Shown: piece after piece, positions 29,349-63,384 of the stretch | How the letters are laid out: every line of letters begins with the position of its first letter | Position numbering within the stretch: the first letter of the stretch is position 1 | IMG/VR virus record: IMGVR_UViG_2706794671_000006 | Strand: one strand, 5' to 3' | DNA length: 64,000 bases | From: a virus | Taxonomy: Duplodnaviria; Heunggongvirae; Uroviricota; Caudoviricetes | Position numbers and translations under genes: made by a program | The notes under the pieces: generated by a model | What the model was told of the DNA's origin: nothing | What the model saw: only the letters and a program-made list of their open reading frames with translations | Database searches by the model: none

Positions 29349-29618
29349 GTGTCGCCGTTAGAACTACTGAACATCCCTCTCACGATGTTCTGGATGCTCA
29401 GTCGCAACATCGACCGTCTACGTGCGGAAGAGGATGTCCGCAACCTGCAAGTCGCTCGCGCTGCTCAGGCAGATGGCGAGGGCGTGAAGGCGTTCATGGA
29501 GGGTTTGCAACTCAGGATTGGAAGACCAGTCGTAACAGATAAAGTCTACGATCCAAGCCAGGATAGGGCAGACCCTGACGCCAAAGAGCAACTGATGCAA
29601 ATATTTGGCAGAGGATGA
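29349..29618 (+). CDS. -1 frame ORF between chaperone and tape measure (possible GT-type frameshift extension)
   Basis: Frame is -1 relative to 28951-29268 and open from ~29232; overlaps start of tape measure gene. No canonical slippery heptamer found. Confidence 0.3.
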   Translation: MSPLELLNIPLTMFWMLSRNIDRLRAEEDVRNLQVARAAQADGEGVKAFMEGLQLRIGRPVVTDKVYDPSQDRADPDAKEQLMQIFGRG

Positions 29619-32600
29619 CAAGGGAATGTCACAAAACGTAGAGTTTATCCTGTCGCTGGAAGACAAACAGTTTACAGCGTCAATCGATCGTGCGGGAAAA
29701 CTGCTTACTCGATTTGGTGAGCAGGTAACAAAGCCTGCTCAAAAAATCCAAACCTTTGAACGCTCTTTGGGTTCGGTCGCCCGTATCATTGGCGTTCTGG
29801 AAAGCAAGCTCGATTCTACGGCAGATAAACTACAGGATGTAGCTGTCGGTTTTGAGCTTGCTTCAGATGCTACGCGTAAAATGCGTGGCAACATCACCAG
29901 CCTCAATTCTGGTCTTAAAGCTCTGATTGAGCGCGTCGATACGACAACTTCTTCAGTAGATAAACTCACCGCGTCATTACGTAAAGTGCAATCAGAGCTA
30001 AATGATTTCTCTGACTGGGCGACCTATGCAAGCAAAAGCGCAAGCCGTTTTGGTACGGAGGTCAAAGAAGCCTCTGCGTCCGTGAGTGGCATGAATACGC
30101 GCCTTAACACCACGACGAAGCGACTCAGTAATTGGGGTGTGACAACAAGCCAGGCTGCCGAGGGACTAAAAAAAGTTCGTGAGCAGATGGACGAAGTTAT
30201 CGGACGTCAGCAACTCATTAACAAGCCTGTACGCGTTCGCACATCAGGAAGCGGAAATGGTGGGGGTAGCGGTGGACGTGGTGGTTACTCTTGGCATATC
30301 GGTAAAAATAACGAAGGCAGTATGTTCTCTGGCCTTCGTGGCAACATTTTCCTGCTTGGTGAGATCGGAGATGCTGCAAGAACCGTCACCAGTATCATGT
30401 TTGGTTGGCAGAAGCCTATTATTGAAGCTGCGGCCGAAATGGAACGTATGCGGGTGATGCTTCGAGGGTTGAATAAGGAGAAGTCCAACCCGGGCCAGGC
30501 TGCCGCTGATGATATGAAGTACATCGTAGACATGGCTCAAAATGCGCCGTTCGCGATGCAGGCGTTAACAGACTCCTTCGTGAAGTTTCGTTCTGCTGGC
30601 TTAGATCCAACCGATGGTTCTCTGAAGGCGCTGGTGGACTCCGTTGCTCGTTTTGGTGGTAATAGTGAGCTGTTGAAACGTGCGGCTGTGGCCGTTCAGC
30701 AGATGTCCGGTAAGGGCGTCGTGTCAATGGAAGAGCTACGTCAGCAATTAGGTGAAGCCGTTCCTAACGCGATGCAGGCAATGGCGGACGCAGCAGGCAT
30801 CACTATGGGGGAACTGACTAAAGCCGTTGCCAGCGGTACGGTTGAGGCAAAACAGGCGTTGTCTCTGATGTTTGTTGGTCTGCGTGCGGAGAATGAGAAC
30901 GCAGCGAAAGACATGATGCAAACCTACACAGGTGCGCTGGCGCAACTTCAGACGTCATTCACGTTATTTGCTGATCGGGTTGGTCAGGCCGGATATCTGG
31001 ATTCTCTATCGAAGGGGATGAAAGAACTGGCTTCAATCATGAATAGCGCCGAAGGGATTTCGTTTGCCAATTCTTTAGGTTCGGGGTTAACGACGGCAAT
31101 CGATGGGTTGCGTCAGCTTGCTCAATGGTTAGCAAAGAACCAAGAGCTGGTAATTAATCTCGGTAAGGTCGTGGCCGCGATGGTTGCGTTCAAACTGATG
31201 CGAGCAGGGATCATGGGAGTAGTTGGCGCAGGCAGCAAGATGGTTAGCACCTTTGCCACGATGGCGACCGCCATACAGACTCCATTTAACCTCGGCGCTA
31301 CAGCAGTAACTCGATTCAATCGTGCGGCACGTATGGGGCTGGCTCCGATCCCCTCTCTTATTTTCGCCATCCGTGGGGCGATTACGGGGCTTAAAGGCGC
31401 TTTTGCTGGATTAACGGCGTTCATTGCAGCAAATCCTATAGGGGCAGCATTTACAGTTGCCACTGTAGCTGTTGCTGGCCTAATCACGTACATGACCATG
31501 CTCCGCAGCGAAACTTCAAAGGTCGTTGACGAGATTAGGAAAATACCAGAGGCGATGACGGCGGCCAAACGTGCACAAATGGCCGACCGCGCAGAAAAGC
31601 TCGAAAAGCAGATTCTTGCTGATCAACGAGCATTAAAAACTGGTGAGGGTGTTAATTACGTATCTAACTCTGCCGGTGTTATTACTCACAAAGAGTCGAA
31701 GGCTGACATCGAAGCACGCCTGAAAAAAAATCAGGAAGAGTATCAAAAGATAACCGGCACGATAGCTCTTGGTGACGGCGCTGTAGCAAAGCGTTTGGCT
31801 AAAGAGGCTGCCGAATCTCAGATTGAGAAAATTCGAGCGGAAAACCAGATTTTCGCGGCAACATTCGTGAAAGCCCGGCAGGAGGCTCTGGATAAGATCC
31901 AGAAAATCAATGATGACGGTTCACTTTCAGATGACGAAAAGAACAAGCTATTGGCACCGTTACGTGAAACGGTAAACAAAAGCTATCTGGAGCCTGCGCA
32001 AAAACTGGTTGATTCATTTTCTTCTCGTAAGAATGCTACCGAGAAGCAAATAGCGACTCTTAATGATCAGCTTGAAAAAGCCAAAAAGGATGGAAATACC
32101 GAGCAAATCCAGAAACTGCAAGGCAGTATCCGTGGTTATCAGGAGCATTTGGAAGCCGTTGCTCAGGAACTGACACAGGCAGAGTTCGAGAGAGATAACG
32201 CGGCCAAAACTGGTAAGGGCGTAATGTCAAACCAGGGGACTGTTCTTGGGTTAGGTACAACTGATAAAGCTGCTCAGAAGGCGCTGGCGCAATATATGCG
32301 AAACCAGATGGATTCTGCGACTTATCAACGTACTTTGCCTGACGGCACTCCGATGATGGACTTCGAAGGTAAGCCGATTATTGGGCCTAAACAACTCAAG
32401 ACGCAGCTTAATTTGCAGAAAGCATCCAGTGCCAGCTCTCTGGAGAAAATGAGCGATGAAGAGCGTGCCGCAGCCATTGCCGCACTGACTAAAGCTCGTG
32501 AACAGGATGCCGCAGCCGCCGAGAAAGCAGCCCAACGATCAGCTAATGCCTCGCAGCGTGCGGCCAAGAAAGAACAGACAGCGCAACAGAAACTGGCAGC

Positions 32601-34182
32601 CGGATACCAGAAGGCTCTGGATAAAGCCGATCAGCTTATGGGGCAAATGGGTGAAAGCTCTAAGGCTACGGTATCGTTTGATCAGTCTCTTCGCGATACA
32701 ACGAAATCGCTGACAGATTTGGCTAATGCGGTTCCTAACGAGTTCATCACTCAAGAGATGATCGACAAGGCGAAAAAACGTCTTGAAGACCTCAAAAATG
32801 CGACACCTGAATATCGCGAGATGTTTAATCGCCGCAATGTTGAGCAGATGATCTCCACCTGGGCACCGGAGTCGGATTCCATTATTAGTGCTGGCTATAC
32901 GCCGTCTCGTGAAGAGAAAGTTGCTGATTTCGAAGACACCTACAACCGCAATCTCAAAGCGTTGATAGAACTTCGTGATAAGGCGTCTGATCCTAAAGTT
33001 GTGGCGCTTTATACAAAGAAAATCAATCAACTGATTGCTGCTGGCAATACCGCGCTTATTAAAGAGACGGGGACTGCGACGCAGAAGTTGGCACTGGAAT
33101 ACGAAAACCTGGCAGAGCAGATCGAAAGCACCTGGACTGATTTGTTTAGTGGCTTAACTGATGTCCTGACTGATTTCGTTATTAACGGGAAGATGAGTTT
33201 CTCCAGCCTATCTCAGTCCATTTTGAAAGATATCACCAATATGGTCGTGAAGTCGCAAATCACGCTGCCTCTAATGAACATGTTGGGGATGGGAACCACC
33301 GCAGCTGGTAGTTCACAGAGTGGTAATTTGCTGACCGGGGTTGCTTCCGCCGTTGCCAATCAAGGGGTACGAATGGGCAACACTGTTAACGGCGACAAGT
33401 CGGTAGGAGAAGCCACGAAGGAGACGTCCAGTTCGGTAACTGGATTAGGGCAAACAACACAGCAGACCACCAGCGCAATTGGCACTGCAACAAATGCGAT
33501 TGGTAGCTGGGTATCAGGGCTATTTGATAGCACTGAAGCCAAAGATGCCGAGACAAAAGCCGTGAAGGACTCCATCTTCTCGATGCAGAACCTCAGCTCT
33601 GTTACCGGCGCGCTGTCTGCCGCGTTTGCAATGCTTGGAGCTAATGCTTCCGGCTCTGGTAATAAGTGGTTGAGTTTTGGAGCAACGGTTGCATCTGGTC
33701 TTGTTTCAGCTTGGGCTGGCGGTGGTTTCGACAGCTTGACATCAAGCTCTGCTAAAACCGCAACCAGCAGTGTGGCTGACGGAACTAAAGGCATTCCTGC
33801 AATCCCGAAGTTTGCAAATGGAGGAATATTCGGAAAAGACGGCGTGATCCCGCTCCGGGCATACCAGAAAGGCGGTATTGCTAACTCGCCTCAATTAGCG
33901 TTGTTTGGGGAAGGTTCTATGAATGAGGCGTATGTTCCATTGCCTGATGGCCGAACAATCCCTGTAACGCTCAGTACCGATGGTATGAGTGGAGGCGGAA
34001 ATGTTCTTTCTCCTGTATCAATTGAGATCAACGTCCATAGTGACGGTAGCACAACTGAATCCGGCGATACAGAAAGCATATGGAACAATGCCGCTCAACG
34101 GATGAAAGCAATCGCGCTTGAGACTATCGCTCAAGAGAAACGCCCTGGCGGATCACTCAACCCAAACACTCAACGTAACTAA
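29605..34182 (+). CDS. tail tape measure protein
   Basis: 1525 aa, coiled-coil rich with central hydrophobic segments, downstream of chaperone genes. Confidence 0.8.
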   Translation: MAEDDKGMSQNVEFILSLEDKQFTASIDRAGKLLTRFGEQVTKPAQKIQTFERSLGSVARIIGVLESKLDSTADKLQDVAVGFELASDATRKMRGNITSLNSGLKALIERVDTTTSSVDKLTASLRKVQSELNDFSDWATYASKSASRFGTEVKEASASVSGMNTRLNTTTKRLSNWGVTTSQAAEGLKKVREQMDEVIGRQQLINKPVRVRTSGSGNGGGSGGRGGYSWHIGKNNEGSMFSGLRGNIFLLGEIGDAARTVTSIMFGWQKPIIEAAAEMERMRVMLRGLNKEKSNPGQAAADDMKYIVDMAQNAPFAMQALTDSFVKFRSAGLDPTDGSLKALVDSVARFGGNSELLKRAAVAVQQMSGKGVVSMEELRQQLGEAVPNAMQAMADAAGITMGELTKAVASGTVEAKQALSLMFVGLRAENENAAKDMMQTYTGALAQLQTSFTLFADRVGQAGYLDSLSKGMKELASIMNSAEGISFANSLGSGLTTAIDGLRQLAQWLAKNQELVINLGKVVAAMVAFKLMRAGIMGVVGAGSKMVSTFATMATAIQTPFNLGATAVTRFNRAARMGLAPIPSLIFAIRGAITGLKGAFAGLTAFIAANPIGAAFTVATVAVAGLITYMTMLRSETSKVVDEIRKIPEAMTAAKRAQMADRAEKLEKQILADQRALKTGEGVNYVSNSAGVITHKESKADIEARLKKNQEEYQKITGTIALGDGAVAKRLAKEAAESQIEKIRAENQIFAATFVKARQEALDKIQKINDDGSLSDDEKNKLLAPLRETVNKSYLEPAQKLVDSFSSRKNATEKQIATLNDQLEKAKKDGNTEQIQKLQGSIRGYQEHLEAVAQELTQAEFERDNAAKTGKGVMSNQGTVLGLGTTDKAAQKALAQYMRNQMDSATYQRTLPDGTPMMDFEGKPIIGPKQLKTQLNLQKASSASSLEKMSDEERAAAIAALTKAREQDAAAAEKAAQRSANASQRAAKKEQTAQQKLAAGYQKALDKADQLMGQMGESSKATVSFDQSLRDTTKSLTDLANAVPNEFITQEMIDKAKKRLEDLKNATPEYREMFNRRNVEQMISTWAPESDSIISAGYTPSREEKVADFEDTYNRNLKALIELRDKASDPKVVALYTKKINQLIAAGNTALIKETGTATQKLALEYENLAEQIESTWTDLFSGLTDVLTDFVINGKMSFSSLSQSILKDITNMVVKSQITLPLMNMLGMGTTAAGSSQSGNLLTGVASAVANQGVRMGNTVNGDKSVGEATKETSSSVTGLGQTTQQTTSAIGTATNAIGSWVSGLFDSTEAKDAETKAVKDSIFSMQNLSSVTGALSAAFAMLGANASGSGNKWLSFGATVASGLVSAWAGGGFDSLTSSSAKTATSSVADGTKGIPAIPKFANGGIFGKDGVIPLRAYQKGGIANSPQLALFGEGSMNEAYVPLPDGRTIPVTLSTDGMSGGGNVLSPVSIEINVHSDGSTTESGDTESIWNNAAQRMKAIALETIAQEKRPGGSLNPNTQRN

Positions 34183-44986: not shown

Positions 44987-45499
44987 ATGGGGGTAGCGTC
45001 GGGATGGGTCGGTTCTTCGGCTAAGAGCGAAACGGGCGAACAATGGATGAGCGCTGCGGGTACTAAGTTAGGATTGGGTAAACCTTTTATGATGAGTCAA
45101 ATGGTGGGACGATCTATGGGCTGTAAAATTGCAACCGCTTACTATAAAGGGAATCCTCCTGATAAAGTCGAAAACTGGGGGGCTGTAGGTTCAGATTGGC
45201 CATTGGCTGAAAAGAACCAAGGTACAATTGCTGGTGCTTCGAGCTGTGGTTTAGGTCGTTTAGTGGGGATCGTGCTTACGCAAGCTCACTACGTTCCAGG
45301 TTTACCGCCCACTGGGGGTTTATACATCGCAGGGGGAAGGGCAAGCAATATTACAGTAACAGTTGGTGGAGTCTCACAAGTTTTTACTTACAATAGTGTT
45401 ATTAACGGTTTTCACTATTACTGGCAAGGAACACCTAGTTCGGCCTTTATAACGGCAATGAAAAGGACGGGGGTTACACAAGATTTGAAAATTAGTTAA
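44987..45499 (+). CDS. hypothetical Gly-rich protein downstream of tail fibre
   Basis: 170 aa ORF; no recognisable motif. Confidence 0.5.
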   Translation: MGVASGWVGSSAKSETGEQWMSAAGTKLGLGKPFMMSQMVGRSMGCKIATAYYKGNPPDKVENWGAVGSDWPLAEKNQGTIAGASSCGLGRLVGIVLTQAHYVPGLPPTGGLYIAGGRASNITVTVGGVSQVFTYNSVINGFHYYWQGTPSSAFITAMKRTGVTQDLKIS

Positions 45500-55273: not shown

Positions 55274-55756
55274 ATGGCGGTAGTTGTGAAAGCTGATTTG
55301 TCAAAAATCCCCTCTATTTCAGGAAATAATGGTTATTCACTTCGTTGTGAGGAAGTAAAGATAAACGGTGAGTCGGCATATTGCAGCTACTCCGTTTGCC
55401 AGCACACCATTCTTGCCTTCAAAGAAAACCGTCTTCCTCGAACTTCATTCCAGTCGTGCGCAACCGCTATCAAAGCAGGCAAATGCAAGGCGTTAAAAAT
55501 GATGGTTGAAGAGATTCGTAAAGGAGAATCTCTGTATTTCGAAGATATGACCGCGCTCATTAAGGAGGTTGAAGAACGGAATAAACAAGCCAGAACTTTA
55601 AAACGAAAACGTGACAGTGTAACGATTAATAGCATGGTTAAGAAGAGCACCACATCACAAACAGCGATCACTGACGTGTATGCGGCGTTGCTTGAAGAAA
55701 CAACAAAAGAAACACATGAGCAAATCGATCAACATATGGAGGTAAAACAACAATGA
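55274..55756 (+). CDS. hypothetical Cys-rich protein
   Basis: 160 aa, five Cys in N-terminal 70 residues. Confidence 0.5.
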   Translation: MAVVVKADLSKIPSISGNNGYSLRCEEVKINGESAYCSYSVCQHTILAFKENRLPRTSFQSCATAIKAGKCKALKMMVEEIRKGESLYFEDMTALIKEVEERNKQARTLKRKRDSVTINSMVKKSTTSQTAITDVYAALLEETTKETHEQIDQHMEVKQQ

Positions 55757-57075
55757 AAAAGTTGATCGCACTTAAGCATAAGCTGGACGAAATGAAAGCT
55801 ATGGGAACCAATGCAAAAAAAGAGGCATTGGCCAACATGGATGACTTCGAGCAAAGCATGGTTTCATTGATGCTCAACCCTTTCATCCGTTTTGGGGTAA
55901 AGAAATACAAAGTGGCAGAGCCGCTTAGTGAGTCCATCCCAAGTGACGAAAAAGCCATTGATGTACTGAATAAGCTGGCCTCTCGCGAGCTAACGGGGAA
56001 CGCAGCAATAGCAGCTGTTGAGTCTATCGTGGCGTCAATGTGCGCCGATGGGCAGGACGTGTTCCGTCGTTTCCTCTTAAAAGACCCGAAAGCAGGTGTT
56101 GGGATTAGCCTATGCAACAAGGTTTTTGAAAATCCCATTCCGAAATTCGAGGTGCAGCTGGCGTCACCGTATAAAGAAAAAGGCGACAAATACCCCTTCA
56201 AGCCAAATCCTAAAGCAAAATGGCCGATGATTGGCAGTCTTAAGCTCGATGGTTTGCGAGTAATTTGCGAGGTTATTGTTGACGAGGAAGAGGTTAACTT
56301 CCTTTCTCGTACTGGTAATCCAATCACGTCTCTCGATCACCTAAAGCCAGCAATGCTAGAATTAGGCAAACTTTCAGGCCACAAACACATCTTCTTCGAT
56401 GGTGAAGGAACTGCCGGTTCATTTAACCAGTCCGTATCTGCATTGCGCAAAAAGAACGTGCAGGCAATTGGCGCTATTTATCATGTTTTCGACTTCTTCC
56501 TACCGGAATGGCGAGCACAGGCTAAATCCAAAGAGTATGCAAAGACAGGTATGAAGCTGAAAGAGCGCCTGGCTATGCTGGTGGCGTTGTTTAAAAACGA
56601 TCGCAGTGAAGGCTACACACAAGACATTCACCTGCATCCGTTCTATATCATCCATAGCCACGAAGACTTCATCGAACGCTTCATGAAACGCCTGGACGAT
56701 AACGAAGAAGGGGAGATGGGCAAAGATCCGAACTCTGTTTACGAGTTTAAACGTACCCGCAGCTGGTGGAAGTTAAAAGACGAAGATTCAGAAGATGGTG
56801 AAATTATCGATTTTGAGCCGGGCGACCCGGACTCTGGTTTTGCCAACACGCTTGGAAAAATAGTTATTCGTCTTGAAAACGGCGTCATCGTTCGTGCGAG
56901 CGGCATTAAGCATAAATATCTGGACGAGATCTGGAACAACAAAGAGAAGTACCGTGGTCGTATTGTCGAGGTTCATTGTCACGAGAAAACACCTGATGGC
57001 AGCTTACGCCACCCACGACTGAAATGGCCGCGTTGCTTACGCGATACCGAAGATCGAATCGGAGATAAAGAATGA
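55753..57075 (+). CDS. ATP-dependent DNA ligase
   Basis: Adenylation motif I SLKLDGLRV (KxDG), FDGE motif; 440 aa. Confidence 0.8.
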   Translation: MKKLIALKHKLDEMKAMGTNAKKEALANMDDFEQSMVSLMLNPFIRFGVKKYKVAEPLSESIPSDEKAIDVLNKLASRELTGNAAIAAVESIVASMCADGQDVFRRFLLKDPKAGVGISLCNKVFENPIPKFEVQLASPYKEKGDKYPFKPNPKAKWPMIGSLKLDGLRVICEVIVDEEEVNFLSRTGNPITSLDHLKPAMLELGKLSGHKHIFFDGEGTAGSFNQSVSALRKKNVQAIGAIYHVFDFFLPEWRAQAKSKEYAKTGMKLKERLAMLVALFKNDRSEGYTQDIHLHPFYIIHSHEDFIERFMKRLDDNEEGEMGKDPNSVYEFKRTRSWWKLKDEDSEDGEIIDFEPGDPDSGFANTLGKIVIRLENGVIVRASGIKHKYLDEIWNNKEKYRGRIVEVHCHEKTPDGSLRHPRLKWPRCLRDTEDRIGDKE

Positions 57076-57287
57076 TCGTATTAAGTAAACGGGAGAAAGA
57101 AACGCTTCATGAAATAAGTAAGTGGCCGGAGTTCCCTCAGTACTGGAAGCCTAAAACGCGAGCTAATTTAGAGCGTTTAGGGTTGGTTGCAAACATTTCG
57201 GAAACGTGGTGCTCAGCCAACTACCAGTTAACTGATAAAGGGAAAGTATTGCTACAGCAATTAGTAGAATCAGGAGTGTTAAAATGA
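57072..57287 (+). CDS. hypothetical small protein
   Basis: 71 aa, ATGA overlap with ligase stop. Confidence 0.45.
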   Translation: MIVLSKREKETLHEISKWPEFPQYWKPKTRANLERLGLVANISETWCSANYQLTDKGKVLLQQLVESGVLK

Positions 57288-57436
57288 TTCCATACATCTC
57301 ATTAGCTTTTATTGGTGGCTTCCTTATCGGCTTCGGCATCTGTCGTGATTTAATTAAGCAGGAACTTAAAACCAAAACACTGTGCATCGGAAAGCGTGTG
57401 TATCGGGTAGTTCATGAAACAAAGGTTAGAAAATGA
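57284..57436 (+). CDS. 50-aa membrane peptide (below ORF-track cutoff)
   Basis: MIPYISLAFIGGFLIGFGIC...; ATGA overlaps at both ends link it to flanking genes. Confidence 0.35.
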   Translation: MIPYISLAFIGGFLIGFGICRDLIKQELKTKTLCIGKRVYRVVHETKVRK

Positions 57437-57723
57437 GCAATTTAACTTCTTGGGACTGGTGGTTGGCCACCTATTTCTTAGCGGTCGGAGTCGCATTCGC
57501 CTTTTACGTAGGTCAGTTAGTCGTAAAACTGTTGCTGATTAAATTTGCTAGTCATAAACGTATCGATGATGGTCTGTGGCGTCTTGGCACCCTGGTGGAA
57601 ACTCGCTACGGGCAACTTAAGGAGAACGAAACCATTACTATCCAAGCGAAACGATTCACTGCCACCATCACAAGAACACCTAGTCGTAGAGTGGCCTTGA
57701 TCAAAAAAGTCACAACCGAATAA
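57433..57723 (+). CDS. small membrane protein
   Basis: 96 aa with N-terminal TM segment WWLATYFLAVGVAFAFYVG. Confidence 0.45.
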   Translation: MSNLTSWDWWLATYFLAVGVAFAFYVGQLVVKLLLIKFASHKRIDDGLWRLGTLVETRYGQLKENETITIQAKRFTATITRTPSRRVALIKKVTTE

Positions 57724-57732
57724 AAACATATC

Positions 57733-57754
57733 GATAAGTATTTACTTACTTATC
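57733..57754 (+). promoter_or_regulatory. motif B palindrome GATAAGTA-TTTACT-TACTTATC
   Basis: Perfect 8-bp arms directly after the last CDS before the tRNA region. Confidence 0.45.
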
Positions 57755-57759
57755 CTTTG

Positions 57760-58480
57760 TGTATAAGATGACTTTGTTTTCGTTGAGATGCGACTGTTTG
57801 AACTTAAATACAAGTGCAAACGAAGAAGTCTATCTGGCAGTAGCCTAATAAGCCAAACACCAGCGAGGTCAGTTTCCAGCCTCGTTACCGAAATGGGACA
57901 CACTGAGCGAGTGTGATTGCAGAACGCAGGAGGGAACACTCATGTTCCCTCCGATGAAGTAACAGAATGGGCGGTCGGTATATTTTCAACTCCATATGAC
58001 TCCCGGATTCTTAGCCACTGACCGCCCATTCTGTTACGTCATTTTGTTCAATTATGTCGTTTATACTGGGTTAAAAAGCGGCGACGTAGCCCGGCTGGTA
58101 TGGTTAGCCAGCACACAACGTTGAGGCCATTACATTTTTATCAATTCTAAGGTTCTATTCACAGAGATACCGGCGAGCGTTGATATGTAACATGTTGGGC
58201 AAACATTCAATCGGAGTAGTGGCCTCAACGTTGTGAAGACAGGATTGTTGTGTAGGTTTAACCACTTTTCCACAACAAATGATTCCATACATCACATTGT
58301 ATAAATTACAAAGTAGGTGCTGTCCTCAGAAACATCATCTACTTAAAGATTTTGCCTTCTATTGAGAGAAGTCGAAAGCGTCTGACACTAACGAAAAGTG
58401 CAAGTAGCGGTGCGTTTCCTGGCAGAAACTAACACCGCCGCGATTGGCACTGTTGAGTAATAAATACTGGCAGTGCCGAA
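57760..58480 (+). other. non-coding region with multiple long-range inverted repeats upstream of tRNA cluster
   Basis: Stems GGAGGGAACA/TGTTCCCTCC, CAGAATGGGCGGTC...GACCGCCCATTCTG (~44-nt loop), AACGTTGAGGCCA...TGGCCTCAACGTT (~80-nt loop), GGCACTG...CAGTGCC. Confidence 0.5.
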
Positions 58481-58482
58481 TT

Positions 58483-58557
58483 GATGGTGTAGCTCAGCGG
58501 TAGAGCAGTTGGCTGTTAACCAATTGGTCGGTGGTTCGAATCCACCCACCATCGCCA
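58483..58557 (+). tRNA. tRNA-Asn (anticodon GTT)
   Basis: Manual fold: acceptor GATGGTG/CACCATC, anticodon loop CTGTTAA, T-arm GGTGG-TTCGAAT-CCACC, 3' GCCA. Confidence 0.8.
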
Positions 58558-58562
58558 ATTTA

Positions 58563-58649
58563 GGGGAGTTAGTCCGTAGAGGTAGCGGGGTAGACTGTAA
58601 ATCTACTGTCATTGCGACTCGGGTGGTTCGACTCTATCACTCCCCACCA
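58563..58649 (+). tRNA. tRNA-Tyr (anticodon GTA), type II with long variable arm
   Basis: Acceptor GGGGAGT/ACTCCCC, anticodon stem GTAGA/TCTAC with loop CTGTAAA, T-loop TTCGACT, 3' ACCA. Confidence 0.75.
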
Positions 58650-58653
58650 AATT

Positions 58654-58729
58654 GCCGATTTAGCTCAGTTGGTAGAGCAGTCGCTTTGTAAGCGAATGGT
58701 CATCGGTTCGATCCCGTTAATCGGCACCA
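58654..58729 (+). tRNA. tRNA-Thr (anticodon TGT)
   Basis: Acceptor GCCGATT/AATCGGC, D-arm GCTCAGTTGGTAGAGC, anticodon loop TTTGTAA, T-loop TTCGATC, 3' ACCA. Confidence 0.75.
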
Positions 58730-58734
58730 ACATA

Positions 58735-59215
58735 ATATTGAGAACATTGGCGTAACGGGGTCATATCCCAATCTATGAATAAATGTTGCGTTGCCGCGTG
58801 ACAACCAGTGTTCTCAACATTGTGGTGAATGCACAGGCTGATGTGCCGCAACTACAGTAGTGCGCGCTTTGCGGGGCTTGCTACAACCCTGTGTCGGAGA
58901 TCAGCGCCGACCATCACAATTTGGCTCTCTTGCAACAGCATAACGCTGAAATATGTCCAACCTGGTGCGGCCTGTTCACCCGCCGTTAGCTCCACGAAAC
59001 GGAGCGCACAACAGGTAAGAACATTTTCAGAGTTCGACTCTCTGAGTTGCCATTCGTGGTGGCACGCGAGACGTGAATGCTCTTTCCGTTGTGGTTGATG
59101 CGCAGACTGATGCGCGGAAAGAAATGCCCCAGCGACACACGAGGCGAGTTCACACACTGCAATGCAGTCAGTAGCCGGGGTCGCTAAGCCGGAGATCAGT
59201 ACCGGTAACCACAAC
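58735..59215 (+). other. ~480 nt highly structured non-coding spacer between tRNA-Thr and tRNA-Ser
   Basis: Multiple hairpins (GCACAGGCTGATGTGCC, GCGCAGACTGATGCGCG, GCTCC-ACGAAAC-GGAGC) and a T-loop-like CAGAG-TTCGACT-CTCTG without acceptor stem. Confidence 0.4.
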
Positions 59216-59219
59216 GACT

Positions 59220-59306
59220 GGAGAGTAGGGAGCATGGTGCTCAAGCGGTCTTGAAAACCGTCCCATTGCGCAAGCGATGATGGTTCGATTCCATTACTCT
59301 CCGCCA
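59220..59306 (+). tRNA. tRNA-Ser (anticodon TGA), type II; unusual D-arm
   Basis: Acceptor GGAGAGT/ACTCTCC, anticodon loop CTTGAAA, T-loop TTCGATT, 3' GCCA; D-arm GAGC-ATGGT-GCTC is non-canonical. Confidence 0.6.
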
Positions 59307-59308
59307 GA

Positions 59309-59386
59309 CACAGCGTTGAGCGGTTTGGCCTTTTAATCAACTCGATTAAGACTCCGCTAACATAAACCAGACCGCTCAACGCTGTG
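59309..59386 (+). repeat. perfect 16-17 bp inverted repeat (CACAGCGTTGAGCGGT / ACCGCTCAACGCTGTG) with ~46-nt spacer immediately 3' of tRNA-Ser
   Basis: Read directly; spacer contains GGCCTTTT. Confidence 0.7.
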
Positions 59387-59531
59387 TGTGAAATTCCACA
59401 TATTTTACACATATCCATTTACGCAATTTTTATTGTTCTTTCATACATTACTCTTATATTTTATTGTCGTTTTTTAACTGCTAAAATCGATACGATTTTA
59501 GCTAAAGTTTATCGTTAAAGGAGTAACGATT

Positions 59532-61445
59532 ATGTCATTCATTGACTATGATATTTTGTCAGCATCATCAAGCAAAGAGCTTAGAGAAAAACTTGCGGAG
59601 AAAATCGCAGAGGGTTGGCAACCTTTCGAGTCACCAAACATTGTTGAACCAAGTAAGGGCGGACCAAATGCGTACAATCAAGCAATTGTGCGATCTGGTG
59701 ATTTATCACAATTGCCCACACCGGTATCAAATGAAGATGAAGAGCCTGACTATTATTATGTAGTTACTATCGCAGGTCAATCCAACTCAATGTCATACGG
59801 CGAAGGACTGCCTATGCCAAAAACTTTTGATCGGCCACATCCTCGCGTAAAACAGTTAGCTCGACGCAGCAATATTAAACCAGGTGGTTTTGCCTGTAAG
59901 TACAATGAAATAATTCCCGCTGATCACTGTCTTCATGATGTACAAGACATGACTAAATTCAAGCATCCAAAAGCAAACGACTCTGAATATGGATGTGTTG
60001 GTCAGGGACTACACATTGGCAAAAAACTATTACCATTCATTCCAGCAAACGCAGGTATTTTGCTCGTTCCTTGCGGAAGAGGTGGTTCTGGTTTCACTGT
60101 TACAGGCTCTGAAGGCCAATATTATGAAGAGTCAGGTGCAATCGAATCATCTTTAAAATGGGGATTAAATACTCCTTTGTATAAGGATATTGTAGCCAGA
60201 ACAAAAGCGGCCTTAAGTAAAAACAAAAAGAATGTATTTCTTGGTGTTGTCTGGATGCAAGGCGAAGCTGATTTGGCAACTGGCAAGTACTCGCAGCATA
60301 ACGAACTGTTCCTCAAGATGGTCGAAGGTTTCAGAAAAGAGCTATCTCAATACGACGCACAATGTGTTTTCGGAAGTGCTGCAAATGTACCCTGGATTTG
60401 TGGCGATACGACCCACTGGTGGAAAAACAAATATCCAAAACAGTACGAAATTGTTTATGGTGGTTATAAGGGAAAAACCTCACAAGCAATTTATTTCGTT
60501 CCATTCATGAAAGATGAGAATGATAATAACGTATTAACCAATAGCCCTACAGATGATCCAGACATCACATCTATTGGCTATTATGGTTCCGGTCATCGCA
60601 AGGATAATAAAACATGGACTTCCGAGAGTAGAGAGAGTCATTTTGGTTCATGGCAGCGACGCGGAATAATATCTGATCGTCTCGCAACTGCGCTGCTTGC
60701 ACATTCAGCGAAATCATCTGCTTTTGTGAATGGCGTTACAGGTGAGATTATTAAACAAGAACAACCTACTCAACCTAAAAATGACAACATTGTCACAACT
60801 CCAACCCCGCGAACGGTTATTTCCTTAACTGGAGCTGGTGGTGATGTCGCTACTGAACAAGGATGGACTGTAACTGGTGCAAATATTCAGTCAGTTGAAA
60901 ACGGAAAAGCAATTGCTTTAACTAAAGCGGTTTCCAACGAAACTTGGACGATCAGTAAAGCTACTGACATAGCACAGGCTCTTCTTGAGAATGGAGGTAA
61001 ATTACTTTGTAAGTTTAAATTATCTGGAAACCCTGATCCAAAAAAAGCTAAGTTTGGCTTTGGTATATATTACAAAACCAGTAAACCTGTTGCTGACGAT
61101 ATATCATTCGACGGTACTGGGAGCCTGTTTCTGGCTAACTTCTTCCTTCAAACAATTGGAGGCAAGTTGAACATTATGATGCACAGGACAGGCAATAATC
61201 GAAATGTTCAGATAGACTCATATGGTGACTACGACAACAATTGGCACACTCTTGAGTTGCAATATGAGAAAGGCACAGGAACTGTAATTCCCGTTCTCGA
61301 TGGCAAGGCGGGGAGTAAATTCAAGCTGGTTAAAGACAATATTGCTCTTGGTGATGAGGCTTTTGTTTTAACAGATATAACAAACAACCAAACTCATGAT
61401 CTTGCTATCGAAACACTTACCATTAGCATCAACAACCCAACCTAA
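59532..61445 (+). CDS. SGNH/GDSL-type carbohydrate esterase with C-terminal lectin-like domain (putative)
   Basis: Block I VVTIAGQSNSMSYG; VVWMQGEAD block; beta-rich C-terminal ~230 aa. Confidence 0.5.
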   Translation: MSFIDYDILSASSSKELREKLAEKIAEGWQPFESPNIVEPSKGGPNAYNQAIVRSGDLSQLPTPVSNEDEEPDYYYVVTIAGQSNSMSYGEGLPMPKTFDRPHPRVKQLARRSNIKPGGFACKYNEIIPADHCLHDVQDMTKFKHPKANDSEYGCVGQGLHIGKKLLPFIPANAGILLVPCGRGGSGFTVTGSEGQYYEESGAIESSLKWGLNTPLYKDIVARTKAALSKNKKNVFLGVVWMQGEADLATGKYSQHNELFLKMVEGFRKELSQYDAQCVFGSAANVPWICGDTTHWWKNKYPKQYEIVYGGYKGKTSQAIYFVPFMKDENDNNVLTNSPTDDPDITSIGYYGSGHRKDNKTWTSESRESHFGSWQRRGIISDRLATALLAHSAKSSAFVNGVTGEIIKQEQPTQPKNDNIVTTPTPRTVISLTGAGGDVATEQGWTVTGANIQSVENGKAIALTKAVSNETWTISKATDIAQALLENGGKLLCKFKLSGNPDPKKAKFGFGIYYKTSKPVADDISFDGTGSLFLANFFLQTIGGKLNIMMHRTGNNRNVQIDSYGDYDNNWHTLELQYEKGTGTVIPVLDGKAGSKFKLVKDNIALGDEAFVLTDITNNQTHDLAIETLTISINNPT

Positions 61446-61522
61446 CACAAAGTAACAGCCAGGCATGAAATTGCCTGGCTTCATATCGAATCAAATATTT
61501 AAAACTAGCTCTACAGAAAAAA

Positions 61523-61553
61523 ATGATTCCATACTCTTTAGGTATGGAATCAT
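61523..61553 (+). other. 12-bp perfect inverted repeat ATGATTCCATAC / GTATGGAATCAT upstream of recombinase gene
   Basis: Read directly; followed by TTTCC. Confidence 0.5.
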
Positions 61554-61652
61554 TTTCCGCATGAAAGATTTTAGCTTGATTCCAAAAGAATCAATGCCTA
61601 ATATACTGGTTACTTATACAGGTGATCAGCGTAACTAGGTGAATGCCAATAA

Positions 61653-62756
61653 ATGAAAAATAGCTTTGACAGAGCACGCGCAGCAGAAAACACCTCAAAA
61701 GAGGCAATTGAGTATCTCGAAAGAGCATCTCAAATGCAGGCCATTATGATCTCACAGATCAACAATAACATGATATTCTCGGACGCATTCATGTTATTCA
61801 CTCGCTTATCTCTGCTGATAACCAGACGTCGGCCAGAGATCGCTGTTCATTGTATTTTGATACATGTTTTGCCGCACATTGCTGATGTAAAAGTAAGTGA
61901 CATTAATAGGTTCATGGTTAACCAACTGGTCAACCCTCTAATATTGGATGGCAAAATTGTTATGGGCCGCCGCGTTTTCTCTCTGATGAAGCAGTTCCTT
62001 AGCTGGTGCGCCTTCCAGGGGATGATAGACGTGTCACCGTTAAACGATATGTCACTAAACAAAGTTGCCGGTGGCGCAAAGCCCACACCTCGCGAGCGGA
62101 AGCTGACCGACGCAGAGGTATGGGTGTTCTGGAATATATGGGACTACTTCAATGTGTGCGCTGGTACAAAATGGGCGGCCAGGCTATGTCTTGTATCAGC
62201 AAGACGACCTGACGAAGTACTGAGGGCTAAAAAAAGTGAGTTCAATCTTAAGCGTGGAGTTTGGAATCAAGGCAAGAGAAACAAGTCAGCACGTGAGCAT
62301 TCGCTACCTTTAAGCACATTAATGCGCACATGCATTGAAGAGTTGTTCGAATACGGTAAAGACAGCCAGTGGCTCGTGCCTTCGAATAAAAAAATCGGGA
62401 AAGACCTTCCTATGTCTAAAGTGGCAATAGCCCAGGCATTACGTCGTATTCTGGAACGACCAGAACTGATGGAGCTTGCGCCATTTACACCCCGAGATTT
62501 GCGCCGTACTGCGCGTAGTTACTTCCCAGCATTAGGCATAAGCCAGGAGGTATCACGCAAAATAATGAACCACAGTCTTGAGGGGATAGATCGGGTCTAC
62601 GACCGGCACGATTATATGGACGAGATGCGAGACGCCTTAGAAAGTTTCTCAACGTACATCGCATCAATCGTAGAGCAACCGGATTTAGACGAAATTGACC
62701 ACAAATTCAAGGGAGATCGTCTATCAACAGAGCTTATTCGTCTAAATTTTTCATAG
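61653..62756 (+). CDS. int: tyrosine recombinase / integrase
   Basis: C-terminal catalytic signature PRDLRRTARSYF...MNHSLEGIDRVYDRHDY; start uncertain. Confidence 0.75.
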   Translation: MKNSFDRARAAENTSKEAIEYLERASQMQAIMISQINNNMIFSDAFMLFTRLSLLITRRRPEIAVHCILIHVLPHIADVKVSDINRFMVNQLVNPLILDGKIVMGRRVFSLMKQFLSWCAFQGMIDVSPLNDMSLNKVAGGAKPTPRERKLTDAEVWVFWNIWDYFNVCAGTKWAARLCLVSARRPDEVLRAKKSEFNLKRGVWNQGKRNKSAREHSLPLSTLMRTCIEELFEYGKDSQWLVPSNKKIGKDLPMSKVAIAQALRRILERPELMELAPFTPRDLRRTARSYFPALGISQEVSRKIMNHSLEGIDRVYDRHDYMDEMRDALESFSTYIASIVEQPDLDEIDHKFKGDRLSTELIRLNFS

Positions 62757-63137
62757 AGACTTTATGGCCTCAACAACCTTTTGTGATGCGCCTTTCTCTT
62801 TACCGAATCGCTCGTTATATGCAGCAAGAACCTGTTTTTCGTCCTCGTTAAGAGGAGCGGTACCTTCTTTGTATAAAAATGCTGCGAGTTCAGGTTGGCG
62901 TTCTTCCAGCACCATCATCATAAGACGACTTGGCTCAATACCCAGCGCCAACGCCAGCGGACGAACCTTATCGATAGGCAAAGGAATTTTACCACTTTTA
63001 ATTAAAGAAAGGTTGTTGGCATTTTTATAACCAATAAGTCTGGCTATTTGGGCCTGACTCATAGGTGAGGATTCAATCAGCCCTGCGATAAAAGCAGCAT
63101 AGCGACTTTCTATAAATTCAATGTTTTTGTCAGACAT
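62751..63137 (-). CDS. XRE-family helix-turn-helix regulator (repressor candidate)
   Basis: HTH-like segment SQAQIARLIGYKNANNLSLIKSG; convergent with int, divergent from downstream AT-rich region. Confidence 0.6.
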   Translation of the reverse strand: MSDKNIEFIESRYAAFIAGLIESSPMSQAQIARLIGYKNANNLSLIKSGKIPLPIDKVRPLALALGIEPSRLMMMVLEERQPELAAFLYKEGTAPLNEDEKQVLAAYNERFGKEKGASQKVVEAIKSL

Positions 63138-63384
63138 TATTGCGACCTTTGCGCGTTAAACTCTCTGGTAAGTGCTTACCGATATTACATCAAAGGTTAG
63201 GGTTGTAAAGATATAATCATTTTTTCTACAGGCACAAATATTAACCAATCAGCATTCATTAATGGAGAAAAACGACTAATAACATGTAACAAAACTAACT
63301 CAGATATGATATAGATAAGTTCAATTATGATATAAGATTTAATAGTACTCCCTACCATATTTTAAGTTAGAATGGATTGATTGA

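Follow-up and report, generated by a model that had tools for sequence, protein, structure and literature searches.

The closest described relatives of the gene reported here are the NanS-p sialate O-acetylesterases of Shiga toxin (Stx)-converting and other lambdoid prophages, such as Z1466/L0105 of 933W and vb_24B_21 (gp84) of phi24B, which fall into PHROG 143 and are built from a DUF1737, a SASA and a DUF6645 domain. Within Stx phages, for example VT2-Sakai and YYZ-2008, the gene is held between stx and the lysis genes in a Q-dependent late operon. The chromosomal enzyme NanS is a single-domain protein of ~330 aa belonging to the nan regulon, without the DUF1737 and lectin-like domains. The NanS-p alleles of EDL933 and O104:H4 whose assays are described in PMC8065619 and PMC8319020 were all active esterases on 5-N-acetyl-9-O-acetylneuraminic acid (Neu5,9Ac2); in the same accounts, NanS-p alleles support growth on Neu5,9Ac2 and strip mono-, di- and tri-O-acetyl groups from mucin glycans. 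In this study a 64,000-nucleotide stretch of viral DNA (Caudoviricetes; IMG/VR record IMGVR_UViG_2706794671_000006), referred to as the window, was found to carry a gene of this same three-domain architecture at 59532..61445 (+). Unlike the lambdoid genes, it stands alone in a cassette of an SSU5-type phage-plasmid, flanked by a tRNA cluster and an integrase gene. We regard it as likely that the gene encodes a NanS-p-type sialate O-acetylesterase that acts on Neu5,9Ac2 and is carried as a single-gene accessory cassette (a "moron").

Domain Architecture and Active Site of the Esterase

The reading frame begins with the ATG at 59532, the first start codon past the upstream stop in the list of open reading frames (ORFs), and encodes 637 aa followed by a stop codon, exactly as a preliminary description of the window had given it. 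A Shine-Dalgarno sequence, AAGGAG (59518..59523, +), was read directly 8 nt 5' of this ATG. The assignment of the coding sequence is supported by PHROG 143, which spans aa 1–636 of 637 (E = 4e-270), by three Pfam domains and by the ratio of non-synonymous to synonymous substitution rates (dN/dS) considered below. The first domain, DUF1737 (aa 1–56; 59532..59699, +), is matched by PF08410 at aa 6–54 (E = 1.3e-6; 28.6 bits, cutoff 24) and shares 34–47% identity with the N-termini of other NanS-p. The second is the SASA/SGNH esterase domain (aa 72–389; 59745..60698, +), delimited by motif positions and by a phmmer match to the NanS crystal structure 3PT5 over aa 67–389 (E = 6e-116, 55% identity over 320 aa); within it PF03629 matches aa 80–285 with 43.6 bits, against a curated gathering cutoff of 24.8. 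A low-complexity linker rich in Pro, Thr and Gln (aa 390–440; 60699..60851, +) leads to the C-terminal lectin-like jelly-roll domain DUF6645 (aa 441–637; 60852..61442, +), matched by PF20350 at aa 485–600 (E = 4.5e-15, above the curated cutoff) and, at aa 441–634, by 6YP6, the crystallized C-terminal domain of the phi24B NanS-p (E = 1.5e-26 by sequence).

Full-length homologs were detected by tblastn in 351 phage records, nearly all of them Stx-converting or other lambdoid phages of E. coli and Shigella, where they are annotated as yjhS, nanS or SASA esterase. The full-length PHROG match, the Pfam triple and the matches to solved structures and phage homologs therefore identify the protein, at the level of sequence, as a full-length NanS-p homolog of DUF1737–SASA–DUF6645 type. 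Its size is also similar to that of NanS-p (637 vs. 613–664 aa), and the host genus is Escherichia/Shigella in both cases. An NCBIfam scan of the protein gave no match, so that there is no curated equivalog name for it, and a six-frame search of the window found no second DUF1737 or lectin-domain paralog. The preliminary description had recognized an SGNH-type, sialate-like O-acetylesterase in the N-terminal half and a beta-rich, lectin-like C-terminus. Both of these domains are borne out by the matches above, while the N-terminal DUF1737 domain and the identity of the family had been missed.

Members of the SASA group are told from other SGNH hydrolases by the Gln of GQSN and by an (H)QGE motif (PMC9487903). 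The conserved blocks of NanS, as listed in the structural account of that enzyme, are GQSNA (17–21), RGGSAF (120–125), MQGEFD (178–183) and R298-x-S-H301, with a main-chain oxygen in Block V in place of the usual Asp (PMC10792757). All four blocks are found in the window protein, as they are in the lambdoid NanS-p, and their residues, Arg367 and His370 among them, do not vary across 26 aligned homologs. Block I, noted earlier as the signature VTIAGQSNSMSYG, contains GQSNS at aa 82–86, with the codon of the nucleophile Ser84 at 59781–59783 (+). The Block II glycine lies in RGGSGF (aa 183–188, +), aligned with NanS RGGSAF 120–125, and the Block III QGE (aa 243–245) lies in MQGEAD (aa 242–247, +), aligned with NanS MQGEFD 178–183. 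The last block, RESH (aa 367–370, +; His370 codon 60639–60641), aligns with R298-S-S-H301. By this alignment Ser84 would act as the nucleophile, Gln83 of GQSN as part of the oxyanion hole and His370 as the base, and the Block V Asp is absent, as in NanS. Chromosomal NanS (3PT5) thus has the same Ser-His pair lacking a Block V Asp, and the same QGE oxyanion arrangement of SASA type. None of the catalytic residues whose absence would have spoken against an esterase is missing, and the aligned residues amount to a complete NanS-type active site.

A full-length AlphaFold model was built from a 24-sequence alignment; it has a mean predicted local distance difference test (pLDDT) score of 66 and leaves aa 56–158 unmodeled, and was left out of any consideration of active-site geometry. 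For the esterase core a model was unnecessary because of the 55% identity to the crystal structure 3PT5. In the C-terminal domain, where pLDDT is ~85, the last ~200 aa are modeled as all-beta, and Foldseek superimposed this region on 6YP6 with a target-normalized template modeling (TM) score of 0.88 and a root-mean-square deviation of 2.0 Å over 221 columns, in agreement with the jelly-roll fold of NanS-p. The top two Foldseek entries were 3PT5 and 6YP6, as in the sequence search. The next folds were lectins similar to concanavalin A, among them the binding domains of botulinum toxins, calreticulin, ERGIC-53 and the sialic-acid-binding lectin domain of the V. cholerae sialidase. The linker has pLDDT below 50 at aa 395–424 and shows no similarity to the linkers of other NanS-p. 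The C-terminal jelly roll of NanS-p has been proposed as a carbohydrate-binding module, with the aromatic residues Y510, Y515, Y540 and F611 of vb_24B_21 in the proposed carbohydrate site (PMC10462455). These align with F508, Y513, F538 and L606 of the window protein, so three of the four stay aromatic, and the NanS-p of YYZ-2008 shows the same pattern. By analogy, the jelly-roll domain at aa 441–637 is presumed to be a carbohydrate-binding module as well.

The Cargo Cassette and Selection on Its Gene

Sequence comparison places the window in an SSU5-type phage-plasmid of ~108–110 kb from E. coli and Shigella. Its backbone is ~96% identical to phage Cyrano and ~78% identical to SSU5, the namesake of a described group of phage-plasmids (PMC3486847), and has further relatives of the pHCM2 and pMT1 kinds. 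Positions 55700–63200 are 100% identical to the 108-kb S. sonnei plasmid LR213459.1, and the esterase gene is 99.9% identical in Escherichia phage CMS-2020a, a 109-kb unannotated record. The gene was found on eight PLSDB plasmids, all non-mobilizable and mostly of 107–110 kb (one of 66.5 kb), including p09EL50 of E. coli O104:H4 2009EL-2050 and five S. sonnei plasmids. Four of 5426 complete E. coli genomes carry it, each time on a plasmid.

The left neighbor of the gene is tRNA-Ser(TGA) at the end of the tRNA cluster (59220..59306, +; ARAGORN and the RefSeq annotation of p09EL50), and its right neighbor is a tyrosine recombinase/integrase gene (61653..62756, +; PHROG 1, E = 5e-46, and RefSeq) that is present in all relatives examined. 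The position between tRNA cluster and recombinase is therefore the one that had been described. Between the two lies a variable cassette of 2.1 kb (59391..61521), whose edges were set by blastn breakpoints against Cyrano, pIso00225_02 and pLH09-a-C, at ~59387–59395 on the left and 61521 on the right. The flanks are 93–99% identical in close relatives without the gene, and the GC content of the cassette is 39.7%, compared with 44–45% in the flanks. In the same slot Cyrano has a hypothetical gene, a glutaredoxin gene and another hypothetical gene, pIso00225_02 has two hypothetical genes and GrxA, and pLH09-a-C has an AbiGi-family gene, hypothetical genes and GrxA; other relatives hold the YafO toxin or ISEcp1-CTX-M-55. 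Given the sharp breakpoints and the other cargo in the slot of relatives, the esterase gene is therefore cargo and, as read from these alignments, fills its cassette alone, at a recombination hot spot beside the integrase. The same variable region beside tRNA loci and the integrase holds the cargo of other members of the SSU5 group (pHCM2, pSLy3, pECOH89 and pWPMR2-like elements), in which insertions near tRNA loci have been described (bioRxiv 10.1101/2025.09.12.675607). Direct repeats or att-like sequences were looked for on either side of the cassette, with nothing beyond a 6-bp coincidence, and no insertion mechanism can be assigned to the cassette.

A second, diverged allele (P0002, at 358–2265 of L007) sits in the same slot of a related element, with 89% identity at the protein level and 85% at the DNA level. 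By blastn against L007, the two share just an 85-nt leader (59447..59531, +) and the ORF (59447–61452 together) and are unrelated further upstream, which delimits the mobile unit; the leader probably holds the expression signals of the gene. The alleles differ at dS 0.73, against ~8% in the adjacent backbone on the integrase side. This is consistent with a cassette history that differs from, and predates, that of the flanks, and with repeated exchange at the hot spot. Since dS so far exceeds the divergence of the flank and the shared unit is so narrowly delimited, the comparison points to independent entry of the two alleles into the slot, or to independent exchange there.

Selection was estimated from a single pairwise codon comparison of the window gene with P0002. 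Overall dN/dS is 0.078, at the above dS of 0.73, and by segment it is 0.075 for DUF1737 (5 non-synonymous vs. 14 synonymous changes), 0.039 for the esterase domain, 0.23 for the linker, the highest value, and 0.086 for the C-terminal domain. The gene is under strong purifying selection and, since dN/dS is low in each domain, selection maintains all three of them in their present genomic context. These values bear directly on the idea of a hitch-hiking passenger, neutral or decaying and without current function in the element. The rarity of the cargo in the plasmid and genome collections above would fit such a passenger, as would the shortened copies of the gene on full-length contigs that are discussed below. 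Set against it are the intact frame of 637 codons with its strong ribosome-binding site, the low dN/dS between two alleles of the same slot, the retention of every catalytic motif and the presence of one identical sequence on at least 1000 S. sonnei contigs, and we find a passenger hardly credible.

The window protein is 46–52% identical to other NanS-p overall, with 27–47% in the N-terminal domain, 59–67% in the esterase domain and 28–44% in the C-terminal domain. Its esterase domain is 55–56% identical to that of chromosomal NanS and so stands nearer to the phage enzymes, among which the other sampled esterase domains share at least 66% identity with one another (median 72%). In a NanS-rooted neighbor-joining tree of this domain (27 sequences, no bootstrap), the window protein and P0002 form a deep sister group to all other sampled NanS-p. 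Among 5.8 billion proteins searched, the variant was represented only by its own 90% cluster (127 members) and P0002, and it was seen solely in this tRNA-Ser/integrase slot.

Where the Enzyme Would Act

While the active site is complete in the alignment, both substrate and host benefit are taken by analogy from the characterized homologs. The enzyme would remove 7-, 8- and 9-O-acetyl groups from Neu5,9Ac2 and related sialic acids, either free or on intestinal mucin, with the jelly-roll domain targeting it to glycans. Sialidases could then free the deacetylated N-acetylneuraminic acid (Neu5Ac), which the host Nan pathway would catabolize, and the bacterium carrying the phage-plasmid would benefit from the Neu5Ac released. 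The N-terminus of the esterase, MSFIDYDILSASSSKELREKLAEKIAEGWQPF, is polar and has no hydrophobic core, and no signal peptide or membrane segment was seen when the protein sequence was read directly, with no predictor run; NanS-p likewise has no signal peptide. Because of this, release by lysis is likely: the substrate would probably be reached only when lytic entry lyses a fraction of the population, or on released virions via DUF1737.

Several observations weigh against this reading. The specificity of the enzyme could differ, because it is only 59–67% (esterase domain) and 28–44% (C-terminal domain) identical to the NanS-p enzymes that have been tested. In the putative carbohydrate site, F611 is replaced by L606 and two further sites have changed from Tyr to Phe. 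A promoter scan found no sigma-70 consensus on the + strand upstream of the gene, which lies outside the late operon, unlike in the Stx phages. Finally, several members of the 90% cluster (P0001) are shortened to 276–553 aa on full-length phage-plasmid contigs of ~109 kb; these may be frameshift pseudogenes, indicating decay in some isolates, or long-read assembly errors.

The second route to the substrate is related to a 2026 preprint on phi24B, whose NanS-p (gp84) is reported to decorate the capsid: DUF1737 hexamers occupy the central pore of the face-center hexons, Tyr42 serves as an anchor and the enzyme part is afterward cleaved off (bioRxiv 10.64898/2026.04.10.717836). If the same held here, DUF1737 would sit at hexon centers and virions would carry the esterase-lectin module, maybe later cleaved off, to aid adhesion to, or passage through, O-acetylated mucus, and the main beneficiary would be the phage and not the lysogen. 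The DUF1737 domain of the window protein is modeled as one helix and three strands (strands at aa 5–11, 30–38 and 47–54, helix at 14–26; pLDDT 54–79), as in the capsid-bound domain of phi24B. Purifying selection on it argues for a function that persists, and a protein without a signal peptide would be in the cytoplasm during head assembly. The head itself is a different matter. The major head protein of the window belongs to phrog_212 (306 aa) and has no detectable similarity (E = 0.35) to that of the VT2-Sakai/phi24B type (phrog_334, 404 aa), so docking on the capsid cannot be inferred by homology. In the alignment, Lys42 takes the place of the anchoring Tyr42 "tooth" of gp84, in an anchor loop longer by 2 aa, and the proposed SSP cleavage motifs of gp84 are absent from the window protein. 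The gene lies ~34 kb from the head genes, most close relatives build the same capsid without it, and the phi24B result comes from a single preprint. We therefore rate capsid display as improbable, a minor alternative that stays live because DUF1737 is under purifying selection.

Deacetylation of a surface polysaccharide (O-antigen, capsule or O-acetylated polysialic acid) would be a different role, whether in receptor change, lysogenic conversion, exclusion or as a virion depolymerase at adsorption. Phage-tail SGNH esterases that deacetylate surface polysaccharides exist, and the slot of relatives also holds defense-type cargo such as AbiGi. In addition, a review raises the action of NanS-p on acetylated lipopolysaccharide as a possible aid to adsorption (PMC8065619). 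The lack of an export signal runs counter to this, as a lysogen could not remodel its own surface with the esterase, and the nearest characterized enzymes are specific for sialic acids. As the preliminary description had said, the gene is away from the tail module: the tail genes end at 45499 and the gene starts at 59532, ~14 kb farther on. No similarity to tail fiber or tailspike adaptors was found, the sole tail PHROG match being marginal (E = 4e-4, over 84 aa of the esterase core), and a PADLOC scan without a match gave no link to a defense system. Taken with the other points, this leaves a surface-polysaccharide role very unlikely. Two specific forms of it were rejected, a tailspike or tail-fiber depolymerase-esterase by location outside the tail module and lack of homology to tail-attachment domains, and O-antigen conversion by the lysogen by the missing export signal.

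Lysogenic conversion, receptor modification and exclusion had been among the roles first put forward for the gene. They do not agree with the absence of a signal peptide, nor with the substrate of the family, which is O-acetylated sialic acid, free or on mucin, in the accounts given of it (PMC8065619, PMC8319020). The virion-associated part of the further suggestion of a virion-associated depolymerase is backed by the reported docking of the phi24B NanS-p on the capsid through DUF1737 (bioRxiv 10.64898/2026.04.10.717836), which is a decoration of the head and not of the tail; the part of the suggestion that concerns the tail is not upheld, no link to the tail being seen here. A NanS-p-type esterase acting on O-acetylated sialic acids is thus the reading we prefer.

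Flanking Elements and Significance of the Phage-Plasmid Cargo

The gene is flanked by three hairpins, one of which is internal to the cassette, 12 nt past the stop codon (61457..61480); it is GC-rich (-17.7 kcal/mol, z = -5.3), was called by the terminator scan on the - strand and is a possible terminator. The other two belong to the backbone, as both are also present by blastn in relatives without the esterase gene. The first of these, after tRNA-Ser at the left edge of the slot (59305..59390; inverted repeat I1), has 24-nt arms (-46.6 kcal/mol, z = -8.6), and the second, at the right edge 5' of the integrase gene (61520..61556; I3), consists of an A-run, a stem and a T-run, with 15-nt arms that are 100% complementary (-19.5 kcal/mol). 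None of the three is followed by a strong U-tract on the + strand. The gene had been described as having its own hairpin terminators. One hairpin does lie in the cassette, and the claim is only partly justified because the other two are backbone and none has a good U-run. Within the AT-rich leader of the cassette (59428–59472), a 14-nt sequence is directly repeated at a distance of 31 bp (TTTTATTGTTCTTT and TTTTATTGTCGTTT) and could be a promoter or operator element; only the second copy, TTTTATTGTCGTTT, is within the 85 nt kept in the diverged allele.

The tRNA cluster consists of four genes (Asn, Tyr, Thr and Ser; 58483–59306), and an Rfam scan of 57.6–61.8 kb returned these four tRNAs only. 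It is 89–95% identical to the tRNA regions of P1, P7, D6 and RCS47-type phage-plasmids, elements with no further relationship to SSU5, and the set of tRNAs differs between relatives (Cyrano has Asn, Thr and Ser without Tyr). The identity of the cluster and its varying sets suggest that tRNA modules are exchanged between phage-plasmid groups. The hairpin after tRNA-Ser (59305–59390) resembles one after tRNA-Thr (58728–58827; -37.8 kcal/mol, z = -4.4): each begins in the last 1–2 bases of its tRNA and their arms share ...TTGAG.../...CTCAAC..TGTG. Both are conserved in relatives and have no Rfam match, and possibilities for them include tRNA processing, termination or a recombination site. Between tRNA-Thr and tRNA-Ser lies a 490-bp non-coding spacer (58730–59219), part of which (58737–59077) is missing in relatives. 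It holds a 25-nt imperfect direct repeat (58895–58919 and 59190–59214, the second copy just 5' of tRNA-Ser), and may be the remnant of a lost or duplicated tRNA unit.

The structural genes lie well upstream in the window, with terminase, portal, scaffold and major head protein at 20.7–25.4 kb and a tail module of 28.1–45.5 kb that includes the major tail protein, tape measure, J-like central fiber, side fiber and adhesin. The tape measure protein (1525 aa; 29605–34182) matches the endolysin phrog_1768 at aa 261–549 (E = 3e-41), and this segment may be an internal peptidoglycan-degrading domain. The neighborhood of the esterase gene is one of replication and recombination genes (a DnaB-like helicase, an ATP-dependent ligase and the integrase, with DnaE further on). 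In the backbone next to the slot (61653–63137), the 3' end of the integrase gene is overlapped by a divergently oriented gene for a helix-turn-helix regulator; possible roles of this integrase are dimer resolution or the capture of cargo. Farther downstream (L001), the backbone encodes a CobT-like protein and an AAA ATPase together with a full-length DnaE (Pol III alpha), a replication set that is unusual for a temperate phage.

The family to which the enzyme belongs is known, as are its structure and activity, and automated annotation already labels copies of the gene as DUF6645/DUF1737 or "9-O-acetyl-N-acetylneuraminic acid deacetylase"; the biochemistry of the window esterase is expected to be ordinary. 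What is new is the vehicle, an SSU5-type phage-plasmid, and the lineage, a deep sister to other NanS-p. The words esterase, NanS and sialic are absent from the text of a 2025 survey of SSU5-group phage-plasmids (bioRxiv 10.1101/2025.09.12.675607). So far NanS-p has been seen as belonging to the lambdoid prophages of pathogenic E. coli, mainly the Stx prophages, to which an extrachromosomal phage-plasmid is now added as a second vehicle. The cargo is a glycan-modifying enzyme, in a slot that otherwise gathers resistance, toxin-antitoxin and abortive-infection genes, compared with the resistance, toxin-antitoxin or defense genes of other SSU5-group elements. If active, it would be a candidate gut-fitness factor on an element usually called cryptic. 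It also offers a natural test case for DUF1737-mediated docking of an enzyme on an unrelated capsid.

The same survey describes a highly conserved pWPMR2-like clade, prevalent in extensively drug-resistant (XDR), MSM-associated S. sonnei, that has no resistance or defense genes (bioRxiv 10.1101/2025.09.12.675607). It is plausible that the window element belongs to this S. sonnei clade, because of its identity to an S. sonnei plasmid and the at least 1000 contigs. We think it rather unlikely that the esterase will prove to be a meaningful colonization factor or a transferable capsid-display module. In the first case, a diverged NanS-p may be the characteristic, perhaps sole, cargo of a highly conserved SSU5-type element that has spread with epidemic XDR S. 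sonnei, and the esterase could then explain the retention of the element, with O-acetylated sialic acids of colonic or rectal mucus serving as a nutrient or with virions tethered to mucus. In the second, DUF1737 may be a general binder of HK97 hexons that can move between unrelated phages along with an enzymatic payload, an idea that arises because selection keeps the domain on a siphovirus with a head protein unrelated to the phi24B one.

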